Positions 38,245 through 60,383 of a DNA stretch of 64,000 nt are shown piece by piece (within the stretch, counting starts at the first letter, position 1; every line of letters begins with the position of its first letter). Made by a program: the position numbers and the translations under genes. The DNA lies in the NCBI RefSeq assembly GCF_044324785.1, contig NZ_CP172129.1; one strand, given 5' to 3'. The stretch is from Escherichia coli (lineage in GTDB: Bacteria; Pseudomonadota; Gammaproteobacteria; Enterobacterales; Enterobacteriaceae). The notes below the pieces were generated by a model. The model was not told the DNA's origin. It saw only the letters and a list, made by a program, of their open reading frames with translations, and did no database searches.

Positions 38245-38582
38245 ACTCACAAAAGCTGACCGGGCCGTGGCACAGCCTCTCTGCTGGCAGAACAGCGTAC
38301 TGCAGAAGTCGTCGTACTGCCGCTGGTCCCGGCATCAGGTCTGCCCGCAGATGGCACTTCTGCCACTGATCTGCCGGTGGAGCTGAACGGCATGACATAT
38401 CAGGCCTGCCGTGGGGATTTTGTGGTGCGCCTCGACGGCAGCACCTGTCTGCAGTTATAGAATAAAGAAGGCGGGGAGGTACGCAGGGAGGGCGATCCGC
38501 TGGAAGTGGCGTAGTGGCTGTAGGCCTGTAATGATGCAGGAATAGAAGTTCGTGTACAGGTTAATGAAAGCATCACCCCGTA
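38245..38582 (+). pseudogene. Decayed copy of the 3' half of the gene at 47720-48310, with in-frame stops
   Basis: DNA aligns with 47955-48310 at high identity but carries stop codons (…CAGTTATAGAATAAA…, …GTGGCGTAGTGGCTGTAGGCC…). Confidence 0.6.
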
Positions 38583-38600
38583 AAAACATGCCGGCACGGT

Positions 38601-38909
38601 TTACACATCATTCCATGGTGGCAGCCGGTTAACTTTCCTGCGCCACCAGTGGAAAGAGGCCATGAGCAGTCCGAACAAAAAACCACTCGTGATACTTATA
38701 ATAATGGCCTCACCTGCTACCATTCCTGACGGCCCCCAGTACATAAACCACATTGCACATCCCCAGGAAATACCCCATAAGCCCCCCATCAGCAGCGTAA
38801 CCTGCCAGAACGGCATAAAGGGCAATGGCGGAAGCCGGATACCCAGCCGCCAGAGAATACGCAGCAGAGGAGGAGCATAATTACTCCGCCACATCTTTTT
38901 GCTGTCCAT
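38601..38909 (-). CDS. Small membrane protein, paralog of 48330-48587
   Basis: 102-aa ORF with hydrophobic segments; 28 aa longer than the paralog at 48330-48587. Confidence 0.45.
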   Translation of the reverse strand: MDSKKMWRSNYAPPLLRILWRLGIRLPPLPFMPFWQVTLLMGGLWGISWGCAMWFMYWGPSGMVAGEAIIISITSGFLFGLLMASFHWWRRKVNRLPPWNDV

Positions 38910-39076
38910 CAGGGCAATTGCCCGGGCTTTTTTTGCTCAAAAGTCACAGGAGCACCTCCGTTCCATGATGTAAACGTGACACAACTTATTGTTATTGATT
39001 ATTATTATCATACCGTGATTATGTTGTCATGCACCTGTACACTGATAAAAGAAAGGGAGAACAGGAGGCTGGCTGA

Positions 39077-39384
39077 ACAACCAATCCGTTCGTCCAGTTC
39101 AATGGCGGCTATCAGGTTCTGCTCCGCAATGTACTCACGAATGCGCTTCCTGTCCTGGCTGGTCAGCATGGTCCAGAATATCTCCATCATTTACCGGCGA
39201 CTTTCCTGCTCATTTCATCCCGCCATGCAGCAGCGGAAGATTCGACCATGTCATGGGGAAGCACATCGCCGCGCTCGAGTTGCTGACGTCCTGCCTCAAC
39301 CTGGTCACGGAACCAGGTATTATGCTGCCGTTCCACGGTCTGGCGCATAAAATCCCGGATTAACTGAGAGCCATTACGGTCCAT
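39077..39384 (-). pseudogene. Remnant of the ParE/RelE-type toxin and RHH antitoxin pair (toxin truncated after ~40 codons; antitoxin frameshifted at its 5' end)
   Basis: DNA aligns with 52190-52580; the toxin ORF runs into unrelated sequence; a 1-bp difference (GCAGGGCCAT versus GCAGCGGCCAT) removes the antitoxin start. Confidence 0.65.
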
Positions 39385-39742
39385 GCTTTTTGCAGGGCCA
39401 TAAAAGCATCCTTCAGTTCAGCGTCAATTCTTAAACTCATATTAACCTGTGCCATTTATCACCCCGTCATTACCACGTATATACACAGTATATAACGATT
39501 CAGATATCGTCACTAGGATATGCCGCGCCAGCGGCATGGAAGGCGGCACTCCGCTGTTTCATATGATACCGCCGAAGCCCGATGTAAGCCGCTACAGTCG
39601 TCCGAAAGTCACCAGCCTCCTCCCCCCTGCCGTCATCCGTGCATCAGCTATGCACTGAGTATGCCTGCCCTTCCCTAGAGAATCCTGCTAGGCTTGCCAC
39701 ACTGATATATCTTGACTTTATGTAAACGATATGACACTTTAA

Positions 39743-39761
39743 CATGATAATGATTACCATT
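39743..39761. promoter_or_regulatory. Fur box upstream of cvaA
   Basis: CATGATAATGATTACCATT in the cvaA promoter region. Confidence 0.5.
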
Positions 39762-40065
39762 CTCTTTTAATATACAGAGAAACTAGGAAATAGATGAATG
39801 AGTTATGTTACTTTAATATTCTCTGACAATAACCTAAATCAGTTAGATTATTGTCATTTAATAAATAATGACATTCTTTCATCATAAATAAAAAGACTAT
39901 TGTTTATAATATTGTTCTCAGCATTATATGATTATTTATCCTGATAACTCTCCTATGCTGTATGTTTATATGATTTTCCTTGAAACATATAATGCAAATT
40001 TTCGATTTATTTTCCATCATTAATCCAGATAAACAACAAACTAATAGTATGCAAGGAGACATTAT

Positions 40066-41340
40066 TTGTTTCGCCAGGATGCTTTAGAAAACAGAAAAAT
40101 GAAGTGGCAGGGACGGGCAATATTACTTCCCGGAATACCACTGTGGTTAATCATGCTGGGAAGCATTGTGTTTATTACGGCATTTCTGATGTTCATTATT
40201 GTTGGTACCTATAGCCGCCGTGTTAATGTCAGTGGTGAGGTCACAACCTGGCCAAGAGCTGTCAATATATATTCAGGTGTACAGGGATTTGTTGTCAGGC
40301 AGTTTGTTCATGAAGGGCAGTTGATAAAAAAAGGGGATCCTGTTTATCTGATTGACATCAGTAAAAGTACACGCAATGGTATTGTCACTGATAATCATCG
40401 CCGGGATATAGAAAACCAGCTGGTTCGTGTGGACAACATTATTTCCCGTCTGGAAGAAAGTAAAAAAATAACGCTAGATACCCTGGAAAAACAACGTCTG
40501 CAATACACAGATGCGTTCCGTCGCTCATCAGACATTATACAGCGTGCAGAGGAAGGGATAAAAATAATGAAAAATAATATGGAGAATTACAGATACTATC
40601 AGTCAAAAGGACTGATTAATAAAGATCAATTAACTAACCAAGTTGCATTATATTATCAACAACAAAACAACCTTCTCAGTCTGAGCGGACAAAATGAACA
40701 AAATGCCCTGCAGATAACCACTCTGGAGAGTCAGATTCAGACTCAGGCAGCAGATTTTGATAATCGTATCTATCAGATGGAACTGCAACGACTCGAATTG
40801 CAGAAAGAACTGGTTAACACTGATGTGGAAGGCGAAATCATTATCCGGGCGTTGTCTGACGGGAAAGTTGACTCCCTGAGTGTCACTGTAGGGCAAATGG
40901 TCAATACCGGAGACAGCCTTCTGCAGGTTATTCCTGAGAACATTGAAAACTATTATCTTATTCTCTGGGTCCCGAATGATGCTGTTCCTTATATTTCGGC
41001 TGGTGACAAAGTGAATATTCGTTATGAAGCCTTCCCCTCAGAAAAATTTGGGCAGTTCTCTGCTACGGTTAAAACTATATCCAGGACTCCTGCGTCAACA
41101 CAGGAAATGTTGACCTATAAGGGAGCACCTCAAAATACGCCGGGTGCCTCTGTTCCCTGGTATAAAGTCATTGCGACGCCTGAAAAGCAGATAATCAGGT
41201 ATGACGAAAAATACCTCCCTCTGGAAAATGGAATGAAAGCCGAAAGTACACTATTTCTGGAAAAAAGGCGTATTTACCAGTGGATGCTTTCTCCTTTCTA
41301 TGACATGAAACACAGTGCAACAGGACCGATCAATGACTAA
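40066..41340 (+). CDS. cvaA: CvaA, colicin V secretion membrane-fusion protein (HlyD family)
   Basis: 424-aa ORF (TTG start as in the track) with N-terminal TM and HlyD-type adaptor; precedes cvaB. Confidence 0.85.
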
Positions 41341-42109
41341 CAGGAATTTCAGACAAATTATAAATCTGCTTGATTTGCGCTGGCAACGTCGTGTTCCGGT
41401 TATTCATCAGACGGAGACCGCTGAATGTGGACTGGCCTGCCTAGCAATGATATGCGGTCATTTTGGTAAGAATATTGACCTGATATATCTTCGCCGGAAG
41501 TTTAATCTCTCTGCCCGTGGAGCAACCCTTGCAGGAATCAATGGAATAGCGGAGCAACTGGGGATGGCCACCCGGGCTCTTTCACTGGAGTTGGATGAAC
41601 TTCGAGTCCTCAAAACGCCGTGTATTCTCCACTGGGATTTCAGTCACTTCGTCGTTCTGGTCAGCGTAAAGCGTAACCGTTATGTACTGCATGATCCGGC
41701 CAGGGGCATAAGATATATCAGCCGGGAGGAAATGAGCCGATATTTTACAGGCGTTGCACTTGAGGTCTGGCCCGGAAGTGAATTCCAGTCGGAAACCCTG
41801 CAGACCCGCATAAGTCTTCGTTCACTGATTAACAGTATTTACGGTATTAAAAGAACGCTGGCGAAAATTTTCTGTCTGTCAGTTGTAATTGAAGCAATCA
41901 ATCTGCTAATGCCGGTGGGGACACAGCTGGTTATGGATCATGCTATTCCTGCGGGGGACAGAGGGCTACTGACGCTAATTTCTGCTGCTCTTATGTTTTT
42001 TATATTACTCAAAGCTGCAACGAGTACGCTGCGCGCATGGTCTTCACTGGTTATGAGCACGCTCATCAATGTACAGTGGCAGTCGGGGCTGTTCGATCAT
42101 CTTCTCAGA
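41333..42109 (+). pseudogene. cvaB: cvaB 5' portion (C39 peptidase domain and first TM segments), interrupted by IS903
   Basis: [20 protein letters not shown]…ETAECGLACLAMI… reading frame ends at the IS903 left end after …LFDHLL. Confidence 0.85.
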
Positions 42110-43166
42110 GGCTTTGTTGAATAAATCGAACTTTTGCTGAGTTGAAGGATCAGATCACGTATCTTCCCGACAACGCAGACCGTTCCGTGGCAAAGCAAAA
42201 GTTCAAAATCACCAACTGGCCCACCTACAATAAAGCCCTCATCAACCGTGGCTCCATAACTTTCTGGCTGGATGATGAAGCTATTCAGGCCTGGTATGAG
42301 TCAGCAACACCTTCTTCACGAGGCAGACCTCAGCGCTATTCTGACCTTGCCATCACTACTGTGCTGGTCATTAAACGCGTATTCAGGCTGACCCTGCGGG
42401 CTGCGCAGGGCTTTATTGATTCCATTTTTTCTCTGATGAACGTTCCGCTACGCTGCCCGGATTACAGCTGTGTCAGCAGGCGGGCAAAGTCGGTTAATGT
42501 CAGTTTCAAAACGCCCACCCGGGGTGAAATCGCACACCTGGTAATTGATTCCACCGGGCTGAAGGTCTTCGGTGAAGGCGAGTGGAAAGTCAAAAAGCAT
42601 GGCCAGGAACGCCGCCGTATCTGGCGTAAGCTGCATCTCGCCGTTGACAGTAAAACACATGAAATCATCTGCGCTGACCTGTCGCTGAACAACGTTACGG
42701 ACTCAGAGGCCTTCCCCGGGTTAATCCGGCAAACCCACCGGAAAATCAGGTCAGCCGCCGCCGATGGCGCTTACGATACCCGGCTATGTCACGATGAACT
42801 GCGGCGTAAGAAAATCAGCGCGCTTATCCCTCCCCGAAAAGGTGCGGGTTACTGGCCCGGTGAATATGCAGACCGTAACCGTGCAGTGGCTAATCAGCGA
42901 ATGACCGGGAGTAATGCGCGGTGGAAATGGACAACAGATTACAACCGTCGCTCGATAGCGGAAACGGCGATGTACCGGGTAAAACAGCTGTTCGGGGGTT
43001 CACTGACGCTGCGTGACTACGATGGTCAGGTTGCGGAGGCTATGGCCCTGGTACGAGCGCTGAACAAAATGACGAAAGCAGGTATGCCTGAAAGCGTGCG
43101 TATTGCCTGAAAACACAACCCGCTACGGGGGAGACTTACCCGAAATCTGATTTATTCAACAAAGCC
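42110..43166 (+). mobile_element. IS903 (IS5 family), 1057 bp, flanked by 9-bp target-site duplication CTTCTCAGA
   Basis: Terminal inverted repeats GGCTTTGTTGAATAAATCG… at 42110 and …TTTATTCAACAAAGCC ending at 43166; direct repeats CTTCTCAGA at 42101-42109 and 43167-43175. Confidence 0.85.
42142..43110 (+). CDS. IS903 transposase
   Basis: 322-aa ORF filling the element; DDE-type transposase. Confidence 0.8.
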   Translation: MKDQITYLPDNADRSVAKQKFKITNWPTYNKALINRGSITFWLDDEAIQAWYESATPSSRGRPQRYSDLAITTVLVIKRVFRLTLRAAQGFIDSIFSLMNVPLRCPDYSCVSRRAKSVNVSFKTPTRGEIAHLVIDSTGLKVFGEGEWKVKKHGQERRRIWRKLHLAVDSKTHEIICADLSLNNVTDSEAFPGLIRQTHRKIRSAAADGAYDTRLCHDELRRKKISALIPPRKGAGYWPGEYADRNRAVANQRMTGSNARWKWTTDYNRRSIAETAMYRVKQLFGGSLTLRDYDGQVAEAMALVRALNKMTKAGMPESVRIA

Positions 43167-44495
43167 CTTCTCAGACTACCGCTGGCGTTTTTTGAACGCC
43201 GAAAATTAGGTGATATCCAGTCACGTTTTGACTCCCTTGACACATTGAGGGCCACATTTACCACCAGTGTGATCGGGTTCATAATGGACAGCATTATGGT
43301 TGTCGGTGTTTGTGTGATGATGCTGTTATACGGAGGATATCTCACCTGGATAGTTCTCTGCTTTACCACAATTTACATTTTTATTCGTCTGGTGACATAC
43401 GGCAATTACCGACAGATATCAGAAGAATGTCTTGTCAGGGAGGCCCGTGCCGCCTCCTATTTTATGGAAACATTATATGGTATTGCCACGGTAAAAATCC
43501 AGGGGATGGTCGGAATTCGGGGGGCACACTGGCTTAATATGAAAATAGATGCGATAAATTCGGGTATTAAGCTAACCAGGATGGATTTGCTCTTCGGAGG
43601 AATAAATACCTTTGTTACCGCCTGTGATCAGATTGTAATTTTATGGCTGGGAGCAGGCCTTGTGATCGATAATCAGATGACAATAGGAATGTTTGTAGCG
43701 TTTAGTTCTTTTCGTGGGCAGTTTTCGGAAAGAGTTGCCTCTCTGACCAGTTTTCTTCTTCAGCTAAGAATAATGAGTCTGCACAATGAGCGCATTGCAG
43801 ATATTGCATTACATGAAAAGGAGGAAAAGAAACCTGAAATTGAAATCGTTGCTGATATGGGGCCAATATCCCTGGAAACCAATGGTTTAAGCTATCGTTA
43901 TGACAGTCAGTCAGCACCGATATTCAGTGCTCTGAGTTTATCTGTAGCTCCGGGGGAAAGTGTGGCTATAACTGGTGCTTCCGGTGCGGGAAAAACCACA
44001 TTAATGAAAGTACTATGTGGACTATTTGAACCTGATAGCGGGAGGGTACTGATAAATGGTATAGATATACGCCAAATTGGAATAAATAATTATCACCGGA
44101 TGATAGCCTGTGTTATGCAGGATGACCGGCTATTTTCAGGCTCAATTCGTGAAAATATCTGTGGTTTTGCAGAGGAAATGGATGAAGAGTGGATGGTAGA
44201 ATGTGCCAGAGCAAGTCATATTCATGATGTTATAATGAATATGCCAATGGGATATGAAACATTAATAGGTGAACTTGGGGAAGGTCTTTCTGGCGGTCAA
44301 AAACAGCGTATATTTATTGCACGAGCCTTATACCGGAAACCAGGAATATTATTTATGGATGAGGCAACCAGTGCTCTTGATTCAGAGAGTGAACATTTCG
44401 TGAATGTTGCCATAAAAAACATGAATATCACCAGGGTAATTATTGCACACAGAGAAACAACGTTGAGAACTGTTGATAGAGTTATTTCTATTTAA
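43167..44495 (+). pseudogene. cvaB: cvaB 3' portion (remaining TM domain and ABC ATPase)
   Basis: Frame resumes …RLPLAFFERRKLGDIQSRF… after the IS903 duplication; Walker A GASGAGKTT, signature LSGGQKQR. Confidence 0.85.
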
Positions 44496-44664
44496 ACCAT
44501 AGAGGAATTACAAGCGTATGAGGAATATTTCTTCCTGTTATAATTCCTCGTTATGCTCAGATATCTGTTGGAGGTGGAATGGAAGATAGACAATCCACCA
44601 AGAAGAAATATCATTCTGTGTGGATTGTCCAATAACTGTTCTTTCTTATATTAAATAATACTAT

Positions 44665-44976
44665 TTATAAACAAACATCACTAAGATTATTTGGACTCCA
44701 ATTACACAATCTTCCCGCAGCATAGTTCCATGCTTCTGAAGGTATCCCTTCGGGTTTTTGCTTAATTGTTCCCCCTAAACCGGATGGAGACATTGCAGGA
44801 TTAGGTTTGTGAGTGGATGCATAGTCATATATTGCACCTCCAGCCACACCCCCAGCAGCTGCTCCAATTCCTCCTGCAACAAATTGCCCGGATAGTGTTC
44901 CTATAGCCATCGCAATATCACGCCCTGAAGCACCACCAGAAACAGAATCTAATTCATTTAGAGTCAGAGTTCTCAT
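44665..44976 (-). CDS. cvaC: CvaC, colicin V (microcin V) precursor with double-glycine leader
   Basis: 103-aa ORF MRTLTLNELDSVSGGASGRD… matching CvaC. Confidence 0.9.
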   Translation of the reverse strand: MRTLTLNELDSVSGGASGRDIAMAIGTLSGQFVAGGIGAAAGGVAGGAIYDYASTHKPNPAMSPSGLGGTIKQKPEGIPSEAWNYAAGRLCNWSPNNLSDVCL

Positions 44977-45190
44977 ATGATCTCCTTTTTATCTTATCGG
45001 ATATTGAATAATAATTATCACCAACAAAGTAACATATTGCAGACATTAATGCAGAGAAGCAAAATGTATGCATGGATAAAAAGTCCTTTCCTCTAAAAAC
45101 ACAATCATATATAGCTAATGCAATATATATTGCGGTGGCATTTATTATAAATGCAAATAACAACTCTAATTTTGTTCTTTTTCTATCCAT
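44954..45190 (-). CDS. cvi: Cvi, colicin V immunity protein
   Basis: 78-aa hydrophobic ORF directly upstream of and overlapping cvaC. Confidence 0.85.
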   Translation of the reverse strand: MDRKRTKLELLFAFIINATAIYIALAIYDCVFRGKDFLSMHTFCFSALMSAICYFVGDNYYSISDKIKRRSYENSDSK

Positions 45191-45237
45191 TACTTTTTAT
45201 CCCATTACTTTCTATCCCATTACCACACAAACACTAA

Positions 45238-45256
45238 CGATAATGATTATCGTTAA
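45238..45256. promoter_or_regulatory. Fur box in the cvi-cvaC promoter
   Basis: CGATAATGATTATCGTTAA about 50 bp upstream of the cvi start. Confidence 0.6.
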
Positions 45257-45308
45257 CATAGTCAAGAGTGAAGGGTAGGAGGCCCTCAACCCCCTATAAG
45301 GGGTCCGC

Positions 45309-46128
45309 TTGGAAAACGGATTTCCCCACGTCAAGAGAATTGATTTGAACGAGTGGCTTCGCTACAAACAGCTCCCGTTTGTGTGTGAAAAACCCCTCTC
45401 AACAGATCTCAACTCTGCACGATATCTACAGGAGATTGCTCCAAAAGGCAGTATCGTGTCTTTTAACTACCGATATAACCCCGTCATCGACATGATAATG
45501 CGTCTGAGAAATGAGAAGAAATTAGGTGAACTGCATTTCTTCTCAGCAGAATTTAATAAAAATTCTGCACTGACCCGCCATCACCTGACCTGGCGAGACT
45601 CCGCACAACAGAGCAAAAGCAGCGGTGCTCTGGGCGATCTATCCTGTCATCTGCTTGATTTATTTTGTTTTATAGGGGAAAGCCCGGTAGTGGTTCATGG
45701 GATCAAAACGGTAAAGGGGACACGTGGGTACAAAATCAGATGGTCAGGTTGAAGTGGATGATAACGGCTATGTAATGGGCAGTTCAGAAAAGGGAGCTTA
45801 TTTCAGAGTTCATGCCAGTAAATCGGAAACAGATCATAATTTGGGACTGCATATACAGCTTGTATTTGAAAATGGTGAAATCAGATATTCAACCCACCAT
45901 GAAAATCGCCTGCTCCTGATTCTATTTAATGATACGAATACGGAAACAATTGGCTTCGACGCTCTGAAACGCTTGCCTGATCCACCACGGGAGCTTCCAT
46001 TCTGGTCTGATTCGTTTATTCATCTTCATGACGACTGGTGTGCTCTTATTAAATATGGTCACTCGTCTCCTAAGCTGGCGGACCTGTCATCCGGCCTTCA
46101 TATACAGGAAATAATTGAGGCATTCTGA
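45309..46128 (+). pseudogene. Gfo/Idh/MocA-family oxidoreductase remnant (lacks N-terminal Rossmann domain, internal frameshift)
   Basis: ORFs 45309-45752 and 45724-46128 in different frames; first contains the conserved EKP motif region (…FVCEKPLS…). Confidence 0.45.
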
Positions 46129-46129
46129 T

Positions 46130-46399
46130 ATGGATACCATTCTTTTAACCGGGCTGTTTGCTGCATTTTTCACAACGTTTGCGTTCGCTCCCCAGAGCAT
46201 AAAAACTATCAGGACACGCAATACCGAAGGTATCTCCGTTGTTATGTATATCATGTTCCTGACAGGTGTAATCTCATGGATAGCGTATGGCATTATGCGA
46301 TCTGATTTTGCCGTACTGATCGCCAATATTGTCACACTGTTTCTGGCTGCACCAGTGCTTGTAATAACACTTATCAACCGCAGGAAAAAACACGTATGA
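46130..46399 (+). CDS. Small membrane protein with a PQ-loop (SemiSWEET-like) motif
   Basis: About 89 aa, three hydrophobic segments and an AFAPQ motif. Confidence 0.4.
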   Translation: MDTILLTGLFAAFFTTFAFAPQSIKTIRTRNTEGISVVMYIMFLTGVISWIAYGIMRSDFAVLIANIVTLFLAAPVLVITLINRRKKHV

Positions 46400-46662
46400 A
46401 TATTGCAATCATCGGCGCGGGTCCTGCCGGCATCATTTCTGCCCGTAATGCGATTAAAGCAGGTCACTCCGTGGTTCTGTTTGAGAAGAATACCCGAATT
46501 GGGGGGATCTGGAACCCCTGGAGTGGTGGCGCTTACCGTAATGCCTGTATGCAGAACTCTCGTTATACATTTCATTATACTGGCTTTCCCCCTGGCGATA
46601 TCGATGAACGAAGTTGGATGCAAATGTCAGATCGTGTGCGCCTGTTAGGGCGCGGCTGGTAA
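46396..46662 (+). pseudogene. N-terminal fragment of an FAD/NAD(P)-binding oxidoreductase
   Basis: Dinucleotide-binding motif IAIIGAGPAG followed by premature termination at 88 aa. Confidence 0.4.
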
Positions 46663-46717
46663 GAGAGCCTTATAGGCGCATTTGAAAAACCTCCGGCTAT
46701 GCCGGAGGATATTTATT

Positions 46718-47170
46718 TCATAATATTCTGAGCAGTCTTGCCGGGTTTCCTGCATAAATGCCTTTGTTCTCAATCGGTTTTACCACAACTGAACCCGCAC
46801 CAATAACAGCTCCGCTGCATATATACGGAGACAGAATAATGGCTCCACTGCCAACAGTAACCGAATCCCCCAGGGTAATGCTGATCCAGTTATCCGGTGA
46901 CGGATCTGGTGCTCCTGAACGAAACAGATCGTTGGCGAACGTCACGTTATGACCAATGAAGCAGTTCTCCCCCAGTGTTACGTTCTCACAAATAAACGTG
47001 TGCGACTGTATCCGGCTTCCACTACCAATGACACAGCCTTTCTGTATCTCAACGAAGGGGCCGACAAACACGTTGTCCCTGAGTTCACATTCATAAATGT
47101 TGACCGGTTTGACAATACGGACATTGGTCCCATAAATCACATCCCGGACAGCACATTCCATAAATTTCAT
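46718..47170 (-). CDS. Hexapeptide-repeat (left-handed beta-helix) acyl/acetyltransferase
   Basis: Repeated [LIV]-G-x-x-x-x hexapeptide pattern through the ORF. Confidence 0.55.
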   Translation of the reverse strand: MKFMECAVRDVIYGTNVRIVKPVNIYECELRDNVFVGPFVEIQKGCVIGSGSRIQSHTFICENVTLGENCFIGHNVTFANDLFRSGAPDPSPDNWISITLGDSVTVGSGAIILSPYICSGAVIGAGSVVVKPIENKGIYAGNPARLLRIL

Positions 47171-47462
47171 ACTCACACGTCCTTTAAATACAGATGACAC
47201 TTGCCGGAATTATACAGCCCAGATTCACTTGCTATGTTTCAGAATAGCTTATAAGCCGCACTTTTACCGATACTCAGCAACAAATCAGGTCTGGATCCAC
47301 TTCAGCCGGAAACCGGATCTGCGCGGCGGGGAACGGGCATACAATATGATAATTAAGCAACTTATATAAAACCATATCTGATATTATTAATAATAAATAA
47401 CACACAAATCATGCGGGATATGATTTTTATTTGTCAGAACATTATCAGATGGAGCGTGCAGG

Positions 47463-47723
47463 ATGGATGAAGAAAGGGTGTTTTCACTCAGCTATGAACA
47501 ACTGACCCGGTTTGCGGAAAAACGCATCCGGGAATGCAATCTGGACAGCCAGGGCGTAACTTATCTCTGCGAGTCAGCCAAAGCCGGAGCTGTGCTGATC
47601 TTCTGGCATGAACTGGCCATAAATGGCTATGCCTCAATGAATGCCATAAAGAGACAGGAGATCATTGACGCCGACCATCAGCGCCTCAGAAAGCTCATCT
47701 GGCCGGAGGATGACTGGAAATGA
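47463..47723 (+). CDS. Hypothetical protein (86 aa), first gene of an overlapping two-gene unit
   Basis: ORF with ATGA stop/start overlap to the next gene. Confidence 0.4.
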   Translation: MDEERVFSLSYEQLTRFAEKRIRECNLDSQGVTYLCESAKAGAVLIFWHELAINGYASMNAIKRQEIIDADHQRLRKLIWPEDDWK

Positions 47724-48310
47724 CTCAGAGCCGCCGACCGTCGCCACTGCAGCGAAGAATGCTGATTGTGCTGGCTGCCCTTGATGAAAAACGGCCAGGA
47801 CCCGTGCTGACGCGGGACATAGAACGGGTGCTGGAGCGAAGCGGGGAAGCCCCAGTCTACGGGCCAAACCTGCGCGCCTCCTGCCGTCGTCTGGAGGATG
47901 CCGGCTGGCTGCGTACCCTGCGCGCTCCGAACCTGCAGCTGGCAGTGGAGCTGACGGACGTCGGCCGGGCCGTGGCACAGCCTCTGCTGCTGGCAGAACA
48001 GGACCGCCTCCGGGCAGAACAGCGTGCGGCAGAAGTCGTCGTACTGCCGCTGGTCCCGGCAGCAGGTCTGCCCGCAGATGGCACTTCTGCCACTGATCTG
48101 GCGGTGCAGCTGAACGGCATAACGTATCAGGCCTGCCGTGGGGATTTTGTGGTGCATCTCGACGGCAGCACCTGTCTGCAGTTATGGAATAAAGAAGGCA
48201 GGGTGGTACGCCGGGAGGGCGATCCGCTGGAAGTGGCGCAGTGGCTGCAGGCCTGTCACGATGCAGGAATGGAGGTTCGCGTACAGATAAATGAAAGTGC
48301 CGCTCCGTAA
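47720..48310 (+). CDS. Hypothetical protein (196 aa), GC-rich
   Basis: Coupled to the upstream ORF; a decayed second copy exists at 38245-38582. Confidence 0.45.
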   Translation: MTQSRRPSPLQRRMLIVLAALDEKRPGPVLTRDIERVLERSGEAPVYGPNLRASCRRLEDAGWLRTLRAPNLQLAVELTDVGRAVAQPLLLAEQDRLRAEQRAAEVVVLPLVPAAGLPADGTSATDLAVQLNGITYQACRGDFVVHLDGSTCLQLWNKEGRVVRREGDPLEVAQWLQACHDAGMEVRVQINESAAP

Positions 48311-48329
48311 GAACACGCCTGTGCACGGT

Positions 48330-48587
48330 TTACACATCATCCCATGGTGGCAGCCGGTTAACTTTCCTGCGCCCCCAGTAGATAAACCACATTGCACATC
48401 CCCAGGAAATGCCCCATAAGCCCCCCGTCAGCACCGTGACCTGCCAGAACGGCATAAAGGGTAATGGCGGAAGCCGGATACCCAGCCGCCAGAGAATACA
48501 CAGAAGAGGAGGGGCATAATTGCTCCGCCACATCTTTTTGCTGTCCATCAGGGCAATGGCCCGGGCTTTTTTCTGCTCAAAGGTCAC
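48330..48587 (-). CDS. Small membrane protein (85 aa), paralog of 38601-38909 with a 28-aa in-frame deletion
   Basis: Hydrophobic ORF; aligns with 38601-38909. Confidence 0.4.
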   Translation of the reverse strand: MTFEQKKARAIALMDSKKMWRSNYAPPLLCILWRLGIRLPPLPFMPFWQVTVLTGGLWGISWGCAMWFIYWGRRKVNRLPPWDDV

Positions 48588-48715
48588 AGGAGCACCTCCG
48601 TTCCATGATGTAAACGTGACACAGCTTATTGTTATTGATTATTATTATCATGCTGTGGTTATGTTGTCATGCATCAGTACACTGACAAAAGTGCAAAAGA
48701 AAGGAAAACAGGCAG

Positions 48716-49051
48716 ATGAACAGAAAATATTATTTTAATAATATGTGGTGGGGATGGGTGACGGGGGGATATATGCTGTATATGTCATGGGATTATGATT
48801 TTAAATACAGATTACTGTTCTGGTGTATTTCTCTCTGCGGAATGGTTTTGTATCCGGTTGCAAAATGGTATATTGAAGATACAGCTCTGAAATTTACCCG
48901 GCCTGATTTCTGGAACAGCGGTTTTTTTGCTGATACACCTGGAAAAATGGGATTGCTTGCTGTTTATACGGGTACTGTTTTCATATTATCTCTTCCGTTA
49001 AGTCTGATATATATTCTTTCTGTTATTATAAAAAGGCTGTCTGTAAGATAG
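48716..49051 (+). CDS. Colicin Ia immunity protein
   Basis: 111-aa membrane protein MNRKYYFNNMWWGWVTGGYMLYMSWDY… matching colicin Ia/Ib immunity; convergent with cia. Confidence 0.85.
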   Translation: MNRKYYFNNMWWGWVTGGYMLYMSWDYDFKYRLLFWCISLCGMVLYPVAKWYIEDTALKFTRPDFWNSGFFADTPGKMGLLAVYTGTVFILSLPLSLIYILSVIIKRLSVR

Positions 49052-49072
49052 ACAGCCTGTCTTATATTTTAT

Positions 49073-50953
49073 TTAAATACCCCAGAACTTATTCGCTTTT
49101 TCCACAAGCGATTCATCAATCAGCGCACCGGTGACAGCCATCAGTAAACCATACCCGATAATGCCTAAAGCGCTTCCGGTAAGAATACTGAAGACCAGTG
49201 CAACAAGAGCCGTTGCGGCATTGCCTGCTATAATGGCTTCTGTTTTAACAAAAAGAGGACGCCAGTTCTCTGTCCGGACACCCTTACCAAACTCAGTGAT
49301 CCAGTCAGCAAGACTTGTAAATTTTCCTGCATATCCCAGTCCCCGACTGAATCTGTTCAGATTAGACGATATATCAGACAGCTTCACTGACTCAAGGGCT
49401 GCGGCAATCGCTGCACGATCTTTTGCATTAATTTTTTTGTTAATGTCAGCCCGGTACTTTTCATACGTTTTTAATGCCTCTTCAACATTACGTATTTTCT
49501 TCCCTTTAGCCTGCCCGGCCATCTCTCTGGCTAACTGCTCAGCTTTTGCACCATATTTTTCTGAAACTGATTTCAGGAACTCTGTTGTGAAATTAATTGC
49601 GTCTTTCGTTGCCTTCAGTTCATCCTGTTTTCTTTTCTCTTCCGCTATCTTCTGATTGATGCCGGCAAGCTGGTTACGGATATTCTCTTTTTCCTTCAAC
49701 AGGGCATTAAGAGCGTCATTTGCATGCTTTTGCTCATTTGTTCTGGCACTGAGGTTATTTCTCGCAGAATTTACCGCAGATTCAGCAGAGGTGATTTTAT
49801 TTCTGGCATCAAGCAATCTTTGCCGTAACTTATCCCATTCAGCAACTTCAGCATTATAAATTTTCTTGTCACCTTCCACATCCTCTGTCACCACCGGATT
49901 CCGGTCATTCAGAATATTGCGTTTATAGTCCAGACCGGAATGGGTCAGAAGATAATTCAGGTTTGCACGGTTATCGATGACTGCGCTGGTTGTGATTTTT
50001 ATCGTACCGGCAAATCTCGGATCACCGCTCACAACAATAGAATGATTTGTTGATGAACGCCCCGGGAATTTTTCAGGGGAAACTATCGTTTTGCCGTCAA
50101 GCGTGTTTTTCTGTTGCGTCAGCTGTTGCTCAGCTCTGGTTAATGCATTACGGGCCGTGTTAAGCGATTCCGTCACTGAACTGAGTTTATTCCGGGCCTC
50201 TGAAATGGCCCTGTCATTCCGTGTCTGCTGCCCGAGCAGACGGGCCTGTTGTGCATCAAGAACGGCAAGGGCTGCCCCGCCATTTTTTTCCAGCTCTGAC
50301 AACCGCGTGTCCAGAATACCTTTTCTGCGCTCGTATTCAGCAAGCATATCAGCGGCCTTCTTGTCTGCGTTCTGCGCATCCTTCTGCCGTTTTTCAGCCT
50401 GTTCGATTAACGACCTGGCCTCCCGGGGAGATATACGAAGAGAATCAGCATCAGCAAAGAGCATCCGGCTCTCTGTATGCAGCCGGAGGGCATCATATCC
50501 GGCGATTTCAGTACGGAATCCGTATTCTCTCAGCTCTGCCTGCAGGAGTCTGAACTCCTGTCGTGTAATATCAGCGGCATCTGCGTTTCCGGCACGGAGT
50601 GTTTTCAGTGTGTTTTCATCTTTTTCCCTTGCAGCAATCGCCGCAGAGAGGCGTTTTGCGGCTTCAGTACGCTTATTCTCATTCTCTTTCTGCTGCGCGC
50701 TGAGCGTCATTTTGTACGCTGTGATTTCCTTGTCCCTTTTTTCGATATCACTTCGGGTTGGGGAATCATCGACCCACTCGTTTCCGCCCCAGATGGTTTT
50801 GTTCCCGAAGGAACTCCATGCAGGCGGGGTACCATGAAAGACATCGACACGTGGAGGGTTTACATAAATATCAACGGCCATAATTTCATGGCCATCTGAA
50901 TCATACCCCAGCGATTCTGCACCGGGATTTGTAATACGTACAGGGTCAGACAT
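49073..50953 (-). CDS. cia: Colicin Ia (pore-forming colicin)
   Basis: 626-aa ORF MSDPVRITNPGAESLGYDSDGHEIMAVDIYVNPPRVDVFHG… with long coiled coil and C-terminal hydrophobic channel domain. Confidence 0.9.
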   Translation of the reverse strand: MSDPVRITNPGAESLGYDSDGHEIMAVDIYVNPPRVDVFHGTPPAWSSFGNKTIWGGNEWVDDSPTRSDIEKRDKEITAYKMTLSAQQKENENKRTEAAKRLSAAIAAREKDENTLKTLRAGNADAADITRQEFRLLQAELREYGFRTEIAGYDALRLHTESRMLFADADSLRISPREARSLIEQAEKRQKDAQNADKKAADMLAEYERRKGILDTRLSELEKNGGAALAVLDAQQARLLGQQTRNDRAISEARNKLSSVTESLNTARNALTRAEQQLTQQKNTLDGKTIVSPEKFPGRSSTNHSIVVSGDPRFAGTIKITTSAVIDNRANLNYLLTHSGLDYKRNILNDRNPVVTEDVEGDKKIYNAEVAEWDKLRQRLLDARNKITSAESAVNSARNNLSARTNEQKHANDALNALLKEKENIRNQLAGINQKIAEEKRKQDELKATKDAINFTTEFLKSVSEKYGAKAEQLAREMAGQAKGKKIRNVEEALKTYEKYRADINKKINAKDRAAIAAALESVKLSDISSNLNRFSRGLGYAGKFTSLADWITEFGKGVRTENWRPLFVKTEAIIAGNAATALVALVFSILTGSALGIIGYGLLMAVTGALIDESLVEKANKFWGI

Positions 50954-50993
50954 TCGGTATCTCCTTCATCCGCTGAGGAAAACAAATGAATTA

Positions 50994-51024
50994 ACTGCTT
51001 ACGTATGTGGATACATATACAGTA
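50994..51024. promoter_or_regulatory. Probable SOS operator (tandem overlapping LexA boxes) in the cia promoter
   Basis: On the cia strand: TTGACA …17 nt… TACTGTATATGTATCCACATACGTAAGCAG, containing CTGT-N8-type half sites. Confidence 0.55.
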
Positions 51025-51138
51025 TTAATTTATTAAGGAGAAAATGGCATGTCAAGATTTAATGATAGTGATTATCATTAACATGAAGTGATTTTACGTC
51101 TGGATAACGTAAATGATTGCGGTATACAGGCCAGGCGG

Positions 51139-51987
51139 TCAGATTTTCAGCCGTGCCTGTTCCTGCAGCAGTTCCAGATGATATGCAGCAATAGCGTTTA
51201 CCACCCCTGCCGTCATCCGTGCGTCGGCGATCGCTGAGTGTGCCTGCCCTTCCCAGGTCAGTCCGGCCTGGCTGGCAGCACAGGCCAGTGAAATCGTGCC
51301 ATAGCGGTTGGTGGCCCCATAATATCCTGCAGCCAGCTCCATCGCACAATATACCGTCAGTTCTTCCAGCCAGTCAGCCGGATCGCTATGTGCGGCAGCA
51401 GTCTGTTTCAGAATGCGGATGTCGAACCGGGCATTAAAGATAATTACTGGTCGGTCCCCGATTGCATGACGCAGTTGCCGCGCCACATCTGTCCATGATG
51501 GTGCGCCGCAGAGAGCCTGCTCGCTGATACCATGCACAGCGGCGGCCTGCGCCCCGATGGCGACCGTGGGCTTCAGCCTGGTTTCAAATACCACCTGACC
51601 GGACGCATCGGTCAGGCCGATTTCCAGAGCTTCCGCGGTATTGTCCAGTCCTGTCGTTTCAGTATCCAGAAAGAGCGGTGCCAGACTCAGCCAGTCATAT
51701 GCCTGCCGTGCCATCCGGCCACTGGTGCTGTTAAGTCTGGATAAAACGGAAAGTCGCTGGCCAGCCAGAAGTTGTTTACTCGTCAGTGGGCGTTTCTCAC
51801 GCATCGGAACACAGTCTGCAATTCGGTATACAGCGAACCTGCCACCATAAGTGTTTTTATACCACTTAACCGGCTCAGCACCGGGGGCTGGCTTCATTCT
51901 GAATTCATCGCGCAGCCGTTCTTTCGAGAAACACCTGTCTTCGGCAATCGCCTGCGCACGTCTGGTGGCCAGCTCATCATTATTCAT
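51139..51987 (-). CDS. DnaQ-like 3'-5' exonuclease (DEDDh) domain protein with an N-terminal extension
   Basis: 282-aa ORF with Exo I motif (…LFLDTETTGLD…) and later H/D motifs (…HSAIADARMTA…). Confidence 0.6.
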   Translation of the reverse strand: MNNDELATRRAQAIAEDRCFSKERLRDEFRMKPAPGAEPVKWYKNTYGGRFAVYRIADCVPMREKRPLTSKQLLAGQRLSVLSRLNSTSGRMARQAYDWLSLAPLFLDTETTGLDNTAEALEIGLTDASGQVVFETRLKPTVAIGAQAAAVHGISEQALCGAPSWTDVARQLRHAIGDRPVIIFNARFDIRILKQTAAAHSDPADWLEELTVYCAMELAAGYYGATNRYGTISLACAASQAGLTWEGQAHSAIADARMTAGVVNAIAAYHLELLQEQARLKI

Positions 51988-52032
51988 GGTTCTTGCATCT
52001 CCGTCAGACCTTTTTATATCCGGACAGCCCCT

Positions 52033-52314
52033 CTATGGCCACTTCTGTGCAGTATGCAATACACGCAGGATATACACTTTTCCCCACTGGCTGTCGACCT
52101 CATAAACCAGAACAAAATGCGGGTGAATAACCAGTTCCCGGGTACCTTCCACACGACCGTTGCGGCCTTTATACGGCTGCCCGGCCAGGCTGCTGGCTGA
52201 ATAACCAATCCGTTCGTCCAGTTCAATGGCGGCCATCAGGTTCTGCTCCGCAATGTACTCACGAATGCGCTTCCTGTCCTGGCTGGCCAGCATGGTCCAG
52301 AATATCTCCATCAT
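52033..52314 (-). CDS. RelE/ParE-superfamily type II toxin
   Basis: 93-aa ORF overlapping the upstream antitoxin by 4 bp; ParE/RelE-like C-terminus (…HPHFVLVYEVDSQWGKVYILRVLH…). Confidence 0.65.
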   Translation of the reverse strand: MMEIFWTMLASQDRKRIREYIAEQNLMAAIELDERIGYSASSLAGQPYKGRNGRVEGTRELVIHPHFVLVYEVDSQWGKVYILRVLHTAQKWP

Positions 52315-52580
52315 TTACCGGCGACTTTCCTGCTCATTTCATCCCGCCATGCAGCAGCGGAAGATTCGACCATGTCATGGGGAAGCACATCGCCGCGCTC
52401 GAGTTGCTGACGTCCTGCCTCAACCTGGTCACGGAACCAGGTATTATGCTGCCGTTCCACGGTCTGGCGCATAAAATCCCGGATTAACTGAGAGCCATTA
52501 CGGTCCATGCTTTTTGCAGCGGCCATAAAAGCATCCTTCAGTTCAGCGTCAATTCTTAAACTCATATTAACCTGTGCCAT
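52311..52580 (-). CDS. Ribbon-helix-helix type II antitoxin
   Basis: 89-aa ORF MAQVNMSLRIDAELKDAF… upstream of the toxin. Confidence 0.6.
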   Translation of the reverse strand: MAQVNMSLRIDAELKDAFMAAAKSMDRNGSQLIRDFMRQTVERQHNTWFRDQVEAGRQQLERGDVLPHDMVESSAAAWRDEMSRKVAGK

Positions 52581-53190
52581 TTATCACCTCGTCATTACTA
52601 CGTATATACACAGTATATAACGATTCAGATATCGTCACCAGAATATGCCGCGTCAGCGGCATGGAAGGCGGCACTCTGTTGTTGCATATGACACAGGAGT
52701 AAAACCGCCGAAGCCCGGCGTAAGCCGGTACGGACTGATAGATTTCACCTTACCCATCCCCAGCCCTGCTAGGCCATATCCGCTTTCAGCCATGATAAAG
52801 CTTCTGTGCGCGGTCGGAGTGGTCCCGACGAGGGTTTACCCGAAGTCGGGGCGTATCTCCGCGTTAGCGGGCCGTCAGGGCCGCTTACGAGCGTGTACTC
52901 AATACTTTCAGCGAGAAGACTGACAGCCATGATGGAGTATAGTTACAACATTCATAATTAAAAGCGACTCTGTTCCGGCCCGAAGGGCCGGGGCGGGGCC
53001 GCTTTTCAGTTATGAGGGAGGGGCTTTGTGGTTTCAGTTCTGCGCTGGTTCGGGGTTTTTCTGGAGGTTGGTTTTGTGTGTTGTAACTAAAGTGGCTCCG
53101 GTTGGGGCCCGCCGTTTACGGTGGGAGGTGCATATCTGTCTGTCCACAGGACAGGCAGTGAATAGGTTTTCTTTTTAAATGAATGTAATT

Positions 53191-53228
53191 GGGGAGCCCG
53201 CAGAATTCGGAAAAAATCGTACGCTAAG
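53191..53228. repeat. 38-bp Tn3-superfamily terminal inverted repeat (GGGGAGCCCGCAGAATTCGGAAAAAATCGTACGCTAAG)
   Basis: GGGG…ACGCTAAG pattern overlapping the tnpA stop. Confidence 0.8.
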
Positions 53229-56190
53229 GTTTTCCGGGCATCCGTAAGGGCCGAAACTTCCCGTCTTCCAGTCTGCGGCTCTGCCGCCAGACGTAATCGC
53301 CGGTTAGGTTGATGTGCTCCCAGCCCAGCGGCGACAGGAATTGCAGCAGCTCGCCGTCCACCGGCTTGCCGGCCTCGACCAACCCCTGGGTGGCGCGTTC
53401 CAGGTACACCGTGTTCCACAGCACGATAGCCGCCGTCACCAGGTTGAGGCCGCTGGCCCGGTAGCGCTGCTGCTCGAAGCTCCGATCCCTGATTTCCCCA
53501 AGGCGGTTGAAGAACACCGCCCTGGCCAGCGAGTTGCGCGCCTCACCTTTGTTCAGGCCGGCATGCACGCGGCGGCGCAGTTCAACACTTTGCAGCCAGT
53601 CCAGGATGAACAGCGTGCGCTCGATCCGGCCCAGCTCGCGCAGGGCCACGGCCAGTCCGTTCTGGCGCGGGTAGCTGCCGAGCTTGCGCAGCATCAGCGA
53701 GGCGGTGACGGTGCCCTGCTTGATCGAGCTGGCCAGGCGCAGGATGTCGTCCCAGTGGGCACGCACGTGCTTGATGTTCAGGGTGCCGCCGATCAGCGGG
53801 CGCAACGTCGGGTAGGCTTGCACGCCCTGCGGCACGTACAGCTTGGTTTCGCCGAGGTCGCGGATGCGCGGCGCGAAGCGGAAGCCTAGCAGGTGCATCA
53901 GGGCAAAGACGTGATCGGTGAAGCCGGCCGTGTCGGTGTAGTGCTCCTCGATCCGCAGGTCGGACTCGTGGTACAGCAGGCCGTCGAGCACATAGGTGGA
54001 ATCGCGGACGCCGACATTCACCACGCGGGTGCTGAACGGCGCGTACTGGTCGGAGATATGGGTATAGAACAGCCGTCCCGGCTCGCTACCGTACTTCGGG
54101 TTGACGTGCCCGGTGCTCTCGCCCCGGCCACCCGCGCGGAAGCGCTGGCCATCGGAGGATGAGGTCGTGCCGTCGCCCCAGTGGGCGGCAAAGGCGTGGC
54201 GATACTGGTGGTTGACCAGCTCGGCCAAGGCCGCCGAATAGGTTTCGTCGCGGATGTGCCAGGCTTGCAGCCAGGACAGCTTGGCGTAGGTCAGGCCGGG
54301 GCTCGACTCGGCCATCTTGGTCAGCCCGAGGTTGATCGCATCACCGAGGATTGCGGACAGCAGCAACGTCCTGTCTTTGGCCTCGGCCCCGTCCTTCAAG
54401 TGGGTGAAGTGGCGGCTGAAGCCCGTCCAGTCGTCCACGTCCATCAGCAGTTCGGTGATCTTGATGCGCGGCAGTAACTGGCTGGTTTGGTCGATCAGCG
54501 CCTGCGCCCGATCCGGCACCGCCGCATCCAGCGGGGTGATTTTCAGCCCTGACTCGGTGAGGATGGCATCGGGCAGCTCGTTGTCCTTGGCCAGGCGGGT
54601 GACGGTGGCCAACTGCTCGTCCAGCAGCTGCAAACGCTCTTCCAGGTACTGGTCGCTGTTCGGGTTGATCGCCAGGGGCAGGGCCTGCTCGCGCTTGAGT
54701 GCGGCGAACTTCTCGGCCGGCAGCAGGTAGTCGTCGAAGTCGCGGAACTGCCGCGAGCCCTTGACCCAGATGTCGCCGGAGCGCAGGGCGTTCTTCAGCT
54801 CGGACAGGGCGCAGATTTCGTAGAATTTCCGGTCGAGGCCTTCCGGGGTGATCACCAGCGGCTTCCAGCGCGGCTTGATGAAGGCCGTGGGTGCATCGGC
54901 CGGCACCTTGCGCAGGTTGTCGGCGTTCATCTCACGCAGGGTCTGCACGGCTGCCAGCACGCCTTGCGCGGCCGGCGCGGCGCGCAGTTCCAGCACCTCC
55001 AGCAAGGCCGGCGTGTAACGGCGCAGGGTGGCGAAGTTCTCGCCGACCAGGTGCAGGTGGTCGAAGCCTTCCGGCCGGGCCAGCAGCTCGGCCTCGCTGA
55101 CGCTCTCGGTGAACTCGTCCCAGGGAATCACCGCCTCGATGGCGGCATAGGGGTCGCTGCCGCTTTCCTTCGCTTCCAGCAGCGCCTGGCCGATCCTGGA
55201 GTACAGGCGCACCTTGTCGTTGATCGCCTTGCCCTGCTTCTGGAACTGCTGCTGATGCTTGTGCTTCGCGCCGCTGAACAGCTTGACCAGGATGCGGTCA
55301 TGCAGATCGACCAGCTCATCGATCACGGTCGCGGTGCTCTCCAGCACCACGGCGGCCAGGGTCGCGTAGCGGCGCTGCGGCTCGAACTTACCGAGGTCTT
55401 TGGGCGTCATCTGCCCACCCTCGCGGGCCAGCTTGAGCAGGCGGTTCTGGTGGATGTGCCGGCCCAGGCCTTCGGGCAAGTCCACCAACTGAAATGTCTT
55501 CAGCCGCTCGATGTGTTCCAGCATGTGCCGAGAGTTGGGTTTCAGCGGTGCCTGGCGCAGCCAGGTCAACCAGGTGATGCTGCTGCCGGCCTTGAGCTTC
55601 AACAGCTCGTCCAGCTTGGCCCGATGCGAGTCCGTGAGTGGTTCGACCAGGGCGCGGTAGACCCGCCGATTGGCTCGCGCAATGGCTTCCGAGCAGGCCC
55701 GGTCAATCACGCTCAGCGCCGGCAGGATGCGTCGTTTCTGCCGTAGGCTCTCCAGGGCCTGACCGGCCAGCAGCAAGCCTTTGTCGGTCTGCTGGGCCAG
55801 CTCGGTTAGCTCGCGCACCAGGGCGCGGAAGTCGGACAGGCCGAACGGGGCCAGTTGCAGGTAGGTGCGCAGTTCCTGGGCATGCTCGCGACGGGTCACG
55901 TCGCGCTCGCCGTACTTTGCCCAGCTCGCCGGCTCGGCCTGGACTTGCTTCGCCACCCACAGGATGACCGGCTCGGGCAGCTCGCTGTCGGTTCCCAGCG
56001 CGTAACCGGGGTAGCGCAGCAGGCAGAGCTGCACGGCGAAGCCGAGGCGGTTGGCGTCGCCGCGTCGCTGGCGGATCAGCGACAGGTCGGAGTCGTTGAA
56101 GGTGTAGTAGCGGATCAGGTCATCCTGGCTTTCCGGCAGCGCAAGCAGGGTGTCCCGCTCCGTGGCCGAGAGGATCAAGCGACGCGGCAT
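53224..56190 (-). CDS. tnpA: Tn21-family transposase TnpA
   Basis: 988-aa ORF with DDE transposase of the Tn3 family. Confidence 0.9.
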
Positions 56191-56193
56191 GTG

Positions 56194-56754
56194 TCAGTCG
56201 TCCGTGCGGAGGTACTGGTAGAGGGTTTCCCGGCTGATGTTGAACTCGCGGGCAAGCTGCGCCTTGGGCTCGCCGGCCGTCGCTCGCTGCCGCAGGGTAG
56301 CAGCCTGCTCATCGGACAGGGCTTTCTTGCGGCCCCGGTACGCGCCACGCTGCTTGGCCAAGGCGATGCCCTCACGCTGCCGCTCGCGGATCAGGGCGCG
56401 CTCGAACTCAGCGAAGGCCCCCATCACCGACAGCATCAGGTTGGCCATCGGCGAGTCCTCGCCAGTGAACACCAGGCCCTCCTTCAGGAACTCGATGCGC
56501 ACGCCGCGCTGAGTCAGCTTCTGTACCAAGCGACGCAGGTCATCGAGGTTGCGGGCCAGCCGATCCATGCTGTGCACCACCACTGTATCGCCTTCGCGGA
56601 CGAAGCTCAGCAGCGCTTCGAGCTGGGGGCGCTGGGTGTCCTTGCCCGATGCCTTGTCGGTGAACACCTTGCTCACCTGGGTTTGTTCCAGCTGGCGTTC
56701 CGGGTTCTGGTCAAAGCTGCTGACCCGGACGTAGCCGATGCGGTGCCCCTGCAC
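56194..56754 (-). CDS. tnpR: Tn21-family resolvase TnpR (serine recombinase)
   Basis: 186-aa ORF MQGHRIGYVRVSSFDQNPERQ… with catalytic serine region and C-terminal HTH. Confidence 0.9.
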   Translation of the reverse strand: MQGHRIGYVRVSSFDQNPERQLEQTQVSKVFTDKASGKDTQRPQLEALLSFVREGDTVVVHSMDRLARNLDDLRRLVQKLTQRGVRIEFLKEGLVFTGEDSPMANLMLSVMGAFAEFERALIRERQREGIALAKQRGAYRGRKKALSDEQAATLRQRATAGEPKAQLAREFNISRETLYQYLRTDD

Positions 56755-56929
56755 GATGTCTCCTTGGTTGAAGGCGGCTTAAGTGCACTTTCTGTTCCGT
56801 TGTGCCTCAAAGCCCATTTCTGTCAGGCTGAAATCTATAACCTTCGCGGGCATGTGTCAAAAAATGGGAAAGCAGACTCTATTCTGACGAAGCGGCGCGG
56901 CCCTGCCTGACATCAAGTTAGGGTATGCC
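56755..56929. promoter_or_regulatory. res (resolution) site region between tnpR and tnpM
   Basis: Position immediately upstream of tnpR as in Tn21; sub-sites not individually mapped. Confidence 0.5.
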
Positions 56930-57280
56930 TCAACCTGACGGCGGCGAATCACAAGCGTCCGGTTTGACGCTGGTTTCGGTCGCAGTGCTGGCCCGCGCCT
57001 GGAAGCGCTGATAGCACTCCAGCCCGCAGAAATGCTCCACGTACTCGGCCCCTTCCGGCGTGAAGGCGGCATCGAGCGGGATTTCCTTGCAGCACACGCA
57101 GCAACTGGTGCTCGGTTCATTGGCGTTCATGGTGGTGTTCCTCCATTGGTTGACGAAGCCGACGAAGGCCGCCGCCGGCATCGGCCTGGCGAACAGGAAA
57201 CCCTGCACCGTGTCGCAACCCGCCTGCCGCAACCACGCAAGGCAGTCGGGTGTTTCCACACCCTCGGCTACCACCTCCAT
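56930..57280 (-). CDS. tnpM: TnpM (urf2M), Tn21 transposition modulator
   Basis: 116-aa ORF starting [19 protein letters not shown]…, ending adjacent to res and beginning at IRi. Confidence 0.7.
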
Positions 57281-57305
57281 TGTCGTTTTCAGAAGACGGC
57301 TGCAC
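57281..57305. repeat. IRi, 25-bp inverted repeat at the intI1 end of the class 1 integron
   Basis: TGTCGTTTTCAGAAGACGGCTGCAC. Confidence 0.8.
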
Positions 57306-57482
57306 TGAACGTCAGAAGCCGACTGCACTATAGCAGCGGAGGGGTTGGATCCATCAGGCAACGACGGGCTGCTGCCGGCCATCAGCGGACGCAGGGAGGA
57401 CTTTCCGCAACCGGCCGTTCGATGCGGCACCGATGGCCTTCGCGCAGGGGTAGTGAATCCGCCAGGATTGACTTGCGCTGCC

Positions 57483-58496: not shown

Positions 58497-58651
58497 GGCT
58501 TGTTATGACTGTTTTTTTGTACAGTCTATGCCTCGGGCATCCAAGCAGCAAGCGCGTTACGCCGTGGGTCGATGTTTGATGTTATGGAGCAGCAACGATG
58601 TTACGCAGCAGGGCAGTCGCCCTAAAACAAAGTTAACCCGGAACCAAAATT
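58497..58651. other. attI1 recombination site and cassette promoter region (5'-conserved segment)
   Basis: …GCCCTAAAACAAAGTTA… junction immediately before the first cassette. Confidence 0.7.
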
Positions 58652-59202: not shown

Positions 59203-59223
59203 AGATGCACTAAGCACATAATT

Positions 59224-60383
<1,160 letters not shown>

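Follow-up and report, generated by a model that had tools for sequence, protein, structure and literature searches.

Does the colicin V (ColV) gene cluster in a 64,000-nt stretch of Escherichia coli contig NZ_CP172129.1 (hereafter the window, by which we mean the whole of this stretch) still encode a working exporter, now that cvaB, the gene for the ATP-binding cassette (ABC) exporter of colicin V, is split there by an insertion sequence (IS)? The data presented below argue strongly, to the point that we hold it as highly probable, for a recent and simple insertion of IS903B that disables CvaB-dependent export on an IncFIB ColV-type virulence plasmid and leaves its carrier an immune non-producer. 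The interrupted gene is an allele that had not been catalogued before, though its kind is familiar: a well-known gene knocked out by a well-known element. The positions of all features are collected in Table 1.

The inserted element (42110-43166) is 1,057 bp long and its terminal inverted repeats, GGCTTTGTTGAATAAATC, are complementary at 18 out of 18 bp. A 9-bp direct repeat, CTTCTCAGA, stands in identical copies on both sides of it (42101-42109 and 43167-43175), exactly where the preliminary description had put them, and the inverted repeats reported there were recovered as well. The chance that 9 bp are identical at exactly both boundaries is 4^-9 = 3.8e-6. Starting from the cvaB start codon at 41333, 777 nt or 259 whole codons precede the element, and the duplicated 9-mer corresponds to codons 257-259 (Leu-Leu-Arg). 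Upon deletion in silico of 42110-43175 we obtained an open reading frame (ORF) of 2,097 nt (698 codons plus stop) that is free of internal stops and reads ...FDHLLRLPLAFF... across the joint (also given as ...FDHLLRLPLAFFERRKLGD...). Both the split after about codon 259 and the restoration of the frame by joining the flanks, as claimed before, are thereby borne out. Within the window there is no second copy of the element's ends.

We compared this arrangement with plasmids in which the site is empty. An uninterrupted 2,097-bp cvaB, 100% identical to both flanks, is found in many ColV plasmids (PLSDB; RefSeq complete E. coli genomes) and several of these intact plasmids place the gene at the coordinate that it has in the window (41333-43429), e.g. 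pCFS3313-1 (NZ_CP026940.2). Positions 1-42109 of the window align to positions 1-42109 of pCFS3313-1 with 22 substitutions, none of them in cvaA or cvaB, and without a gap; positions 43167-51066 equal pCFS3313-1 42101-50000 at 100%; and the 9-mer at 42101-42109 of pCFS3313-1 is used by both flank alignments. The ColV and ColV-Ia plasmids of the pCFS3313-1, pS88 and pAPEC-1 type that have an intact operon share genes, gene order and plasmid coordinates with the window: cvaA, both halves of cvaB, cvaC and cvi are 100% identical in pCFS3313-1, and the cvaB of pS88 (NC_011747.1) is 100% identical to both halves. In comparison with these plasmids the cvaB of the window has an additional 1,066 bp, the sum of the IS and the duplication. 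Because the element and the duplicated 9-mer are the sole structural difference with pCFS3313-1 over the first 51 kb, the event is best described as a simple transposition and not as the joint of a rearrangement: one copy of IS903B would have entered cvaB behind codon 259, with duplication of its 9-bp target. We infer that the event was recent, in line with the recent simple insertion that had been proposed earlier: many copies elsewhere have exactly the sequence of this element, the two 9-mers have not diverged, and the flanks agree at 100% with intact alleles and have acquired no mutation of their own.

The element had been named an exact 1,057-bp IS903, a name of which only the length could be maintained. 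Its full length is matched at 100% by many copies, on chromosomes as well as on plasmids, that carry the Prokaryotic Genome Annotation Pipeline (PGAP) label 'IS5-like element IS903B family transposase', where identity was judged against such annotated copies and not against the ISfinder reference. Relative to a full copy annotated as IS903 there are 44 mismatches in 1,057 positions (95.84% identity) and eight transposase residues differ; this copy was located with the first 227 bases of a Tn903-type IS903, a query that matches elements annotated 'IS903 family' at 100%. The identification as 'exact IS903' was rejected on the basis of these figures (95.84% to the IS903-annotated copy versus 100% to the IS903B-annotated copies). 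The transposase gene is oriented in the same way as cvaB; besides the ORF listed in Table 1 there is a longer, PGAP-style version that starts with TTG at 42142 and encodes 322 residues. The match to NCBIfam NF033579 (IS5 family transposase) scores 357.6 bits, versus a cut-off of 140, and covers profile positions 1-289 of 289. Published work gives IS903B a length of 1,057 bp and direct repeats of 9 bp (PMC10513040), and the copy in the window shows that length, inverted repeats of ~18 bp, a 9-bp duplication, a single intact transposase gene and an IS903B-like sequence. Judged by its likeness to annotated copies, the element is the IS903B isoform rather than the prototype IS903. Similar simple insertions of IS903B/IS903 are known, for example those that inactivate mgrB in Klebsiella, with the same size, 18-bp repeats, single transposase gene, 9-bp duplication and knockout of the target (PMC10513040, PMC8796155). 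The target is different, however: mgrB is chromosomal whereas cvaB lies on a ColV virulence plasmid, and for the present hit a selectable phenotype such as colistin resistance is not known.

What remains of the protein can be read from the frames on either side of the element. The cvaB frame enters the IS as GGC TTT GTT GAA TAA, with the stop codon (TAA, 42122-42124) inside the left inverted repeat, and the present product therefore counts 263 residues and has the C-terminus ...LLRGFVE, of which the last four codons are IS-encoded. The restored protein contains the Pfam domains Peptidase_C39 (PF03412, residues 21-149), ABC_membrane (PF00664, 179-444) and ABC_tran (PF00005, 511-658), i.e. the C39 peptidase, the six-helix membrane domain and the ABC ATPase in the order that characterizes CvaB. 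The same architecture is shared by PCAT1 (chains 4ry2 and 8vp3), a bacteriocin exporter of solved structure that belongs to the peptidase-containing ABC transporters, to which residues 17-695 of restored CvaB align end to end (E ~1e-86); no structure of CvaB itself was present in the PDB list that was returned by the homologue search. Unlike PCAT1, the interrupted cvaB encodes no more than residues 1-259 as a continuous stretch. A hydropathy scan of restored CvaB revealed hydrophobic segments at residues ~174-201, 207-233, 285-336 (two helices) and 397-424. Because these segments end at ~233 and resume at ~285, the break at residue 259 falls in a hydrophilic, cytoplasmic stretch between the predicted second and third transmembrane helices (TM2 and TM3). 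The C39 triad C32, H105 and D121 is retained in the 263-residue product (the catalytic residues of CvaB were defined in PMC3335142 and PMC10233263), and TM3-TM6, four of the six helices, as well as the whole ATPase domain are missing from it.

On the other side, the cvaB frame past the transposase is open from 43092. The in-frame ATG, GTG and TTG codons that could serve as starts for the 3' fragment, at 43245-43320, sit within or just ahead of the predicted TM3, none of them is preceded by a Shine-Dalgarno-like sequence, and a promoter scan yielded no convincing outward promoter for this fragment. Over all 2,097 nt the restored gene is 100% identical to the cvaB of pCFS3313-1 (WP_000184924.1) and of many other plasmids, and one uninterrupted reading frame is what the gene in the window lacks, with a stop after 263 residues and a 3' part without a start signal of its own. 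Judged by its reading frames, the interrupted gene is a cvaB pseudogene and not a functional exporter gene.

The expected consequences follow from what has been published on colicin V secretion. Export requires CvaA, CvaB and TolC (PMC2626276, PMC3335142), secretion depends on the C-terminal nucleotide-binding domain of CvaB (PMC3335142), and cells that have microcin V (MccV) and Cvi and lack CvaAB give no inhibition zone (PMC10231218). Because the truncated CvaB is without TM3-TM6 and without the ATPase, and hence without a translocation pathway, it would not export colicin V; the cell would still make pre-ColV and Cvi and would release no toxin. The phenotype is thus likely that of an immune strain that does not secrete colicin V, as the preliminary description had expected, unless a host exporter such as the chromosomal MchEF takes over. 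[quoted passage not shown] The insertion cannot be polar on cvi and cvaC because these form a separate operon that is convergent with cvaAB.

The codon-259 junction with IS903B is absent from 72,556 plasmids (PLSDB) and from 5,426 RefSeq complete E. coli genomes, and a 34-mer spanning the left junction gave 0 matches in the JGI metagenome contigs. The exact 263-residue product is on record once, in the Logan assembly of SRR31073010, where the contig equals window 39524-42138 exactly and ends 29 nt into the IS. Short-read contigs typically end at repeats. Two near-full-length plasmid matches were discarded since they do not represent the same allele: one concerns IS903B in cvaC (CP098992.1, 5267-6858 of the extracted stretch) and the other an mchF-linked locus. 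A near-full-length chromosomal match, in NZ_CP042892.1 (1840-4178 of the extracted stretch), was discarded likewise and concerns a frameshifted IS903-like element that splits the chromosomal mchE just upstream of mchF. In NZ_CP151046.1 (51241-54688) cvaB is interrupted by another element, ISEc48. These disrupted ColV and microcin export loci resemble that of the window in that exporter or toxin function is lost and the rest of the locus is kept; they differ from it in the element, the position or both, and none of them has the codon-259 junction.

Many independent cvaB-null alleles without an IS were encountered in unrelated public assemblies, all between nt 625 and 865 of the gene: 1-bp deletions at 756, 831 and 853; two 1-bp deletions in one assembly, at 625 and at 633; a deletion of 7 bp (859-865); an 87-bp deletion (776-862); 1-bp insertions at 668 and 839; and the nonsense alleles G747A (two samples) and C742T. 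Some of these may be sequencing errors and their clustering stems partly from retrieval via a shared C-terminal ORF.

Two readings would deny that a simple insertion took place. The assembler could have misplaced a multi-copy IS into cvaB, and it is true that many E. coli genomes contain several copies of IS903B (at up to 47 places in one genome) and that the allele is missing from the plasmid and genome collections. A misplaced repeat would, however, not give a perfect 9-bp duplication of IS-typical length exactly at the ends, and the left junction is present in a separately built assembly, that of the public reads SRR31073010, so that an artefact is very improbable. The IS could also mark a larger IS-mediated rearrangement, such as the end of a composite transposon, a deletion or an inversion joint. 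Elsewhere, mobile elements have often broken up the ColV operon (a 1-567 remnant of cvaB lies beside IS421 and further partial remnants exist) and the split between the conserved and the variable part of the ColV plasmids of avian pathogenic E. coli lies within cvaB (PMC2270849). Yet the flanks are contiguous in the intact plasmids, the gain or loss is confined to the IS plus 9 bp, the target duplication is present and the window holds a single copy of IS903B. A rearrangement is even harder to credit than an artefact, and the composite-transposon version of it was rejected in view of the colinearity with pCFS3313-1.

Several points weigh against a loss of export caused by this IS903B insertion. 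SRR31073010 and the window may represent the same isolate and are then perhaps not independent, and the right junction was not found independently by exact look-up of ten candidate C-terminal products: two of the ten are on record, on contigs whose cvaB is either intact or altered by a frameshift, a nonsense change or a small deletion, and in which the IS is absent. The loss of export is moreover a property that we infer from domain content. Lastly, mchF-type genes (~90% DNA identity to cvaB) occur at 364 chromosomal places in the 5,426 complete E. coli genomes, a sizeable minority, and the host chromosome and the remainder of the plasmid, outside the window, could encode a substituting exporter. 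Colicin V would then still be secreted, either through a host paralogue (MchEF, encoded by the microcin H47/M island, or a different ABC transporter with a peptidase domain) or through both pieces of CvaB, made separately and reassembled. In PLSDB there is one plasmid with an mchF-annotated exporter adjoining a gene of the colicin V family, and the exporters of ColV and microcin H47 (MccH47) are reportedly interchangeable; our literature search on the substitution of CvaAB by MchEF retrieved no paper with both terms. The IS transposase runs parallel to cvaB, so transcription through the IS might extend into the 3' fragment. Against continued secretion speak the absence from the 64-kb window of a second exporter of the CvaB type and the fact that the in-frame starts of the 3' fragment have no Shine-Dalgarno-like sequence ahead of them, while a product from these would begin only in or just before TM3. 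We consider continued secretion unlikely, and disabled export through the IS903B insertion is the interpretation that we retain.

The remainder of the ColV locus is complete. The preliminary description had listed cvaA, cvaC and cvi as intact and all three are base-for-base identical to the genes of pCFS3313-1. The end of cvaA overlaps the start of cvaB by 8 nt, and CvaA matches HlyD-type adaptor families of NCBIfam with scores under the curated cut-offs. Fur-box-like sites are found in both ColV promoter regions, which match those of intact plasmids; the one preceding cvaA overlaps a promoter-like site at 39731-39760, and the + strand of the window has only four matches of this quality (16/19). 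The presence of these sites at both ColV operon promoters fits control by iron. Transcripts that run on from the iron-regulated cvaA promoter would reach IS903B in the direction in which its transposase is read.

Table 1. Features of the interrupted ColV locus, in window coordinates
Feature	Position	Strand	Remarks
Fur-box-like site, cvaA promoter region	39746-39764	+	16/19 matches to GATAATGATAATCATTATC; no mismatch to pCFS3313-1
cvaA (HlyD-type membrane fusion protein of the ColV exporter), intact	40066-41340	+	no mismatch to WP_000489608.1; same coordinates in pCFS3313-1
cvaB 5' fragment, codons 1-259 (C39 peptidase and predicted TM1-TM2)	41333-42109	+	
Left copy of the target-site duplication, CTTCTCAGA	42101-42109	no strand	9-mer single in pCFS3313-1, at 42101-42109
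IS903B (IS5 family), 1,057 bp	42110-43166	+	100% identity to IS903B-annotated copies
Left terminal inverted repeat, 18 bp	42110-42127	+	18/18 complementary to 43149-43166
IS903B transposase ORF, uninterrupted	42187-43110	+	307 residues from GTG
Right terminal inverted repeat, 18 bp	43149-43166	-	
Right copy of the target-site duplication, CTTCTCAGA	43167-43175	no strand	
cvaB 3' fragment, codons 260-698 plus stop (rest of the TM2-TM3 cytoplasmic segment, TM3-TM6, nucleotide-binding domain)	43176-44495	+	100% identical to pCFS3313-1
cvaC (colicin V / microcin V precursor, 103 residues, double-glycine leader), intact	44665-44976	-	100% identical block; WP_001259758.1 in pCFS3313-1
cvi (colicin V immunity protein, 78 residues), intact	44954-45190	-	100% identical block; WP_001323890.1 in pCFS3313-1
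Fur-box-like site, cvi-cvaC promoter region	45239-45257	+	16/19 matches; overlaps minus-strand promoter-like site 45265-45237

Some observations concern the surroundings of the locus. Of the substitutions that separate the window from pCFS3313-1, 19 out of 22 cluster within ~870 bp (21561-22429), coinciding with a copy of IS2, which suggests a different IS2 variant or gene conversion. The resistance region at 51067-64000 is unlike that of pCFS3313-1: the tet(A)/tetR module between two copies of the TnAs1 transposase is absent, TnAs1, intI1, dfrA5, IS26, TEM-1 and IS26 are retained, and a piece with sul2 and aph(3'')-Ib is inverted at 63179-64000. The region of a DUF6404 gene upstream of the ColV locus (38286-39051) recurs downstream of it (48013-48691) with 91-93% identity. 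A decayed remnant of the yacAB toxin-antitoxin system adjoins cvaA (pCFS3313-1 39062-39566), and an intact-looking copy that is 97% identical lies at 52186-52691 of the window. Each of the two modules, ColV and colicin Ia, is thus flanked by similar repeats.

One may ask whether the insertion is a case of a recurrent, and possibly selected, loss of ColV secretion. If so, the plasmid would retain immunity and shed the cost of export, its carrier would act as an 'immune cheater', and the membrane-anchored C39 fragment (CvaB 1-259) could still attach to pre-ColV, cut it, or disturb the action of a resident MchEF exporter. We regard this as a tentative and rather doubtful proposition. The many independent cvaB-null alleles are compatible with selected loss, and selection is not demonstrated by them.

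The insertion itself raises no new biological question. It adds one more independent knockout to those of cvaB, and a recent-looking one with a perfect duplication and no decay. It does matter for annotation and typing, as screens for gene presence would call the plasmid 'cvaABC/cvi positive' though it is very probably a non-producer. A deletion mutant of cvaB was unchanged in its lethality for chick embryos (PMC2270849), and the knockout described here accords with the published view that the production of colicin V is dispensable for the virulence functions of ColV plasmids (PMC2270849).

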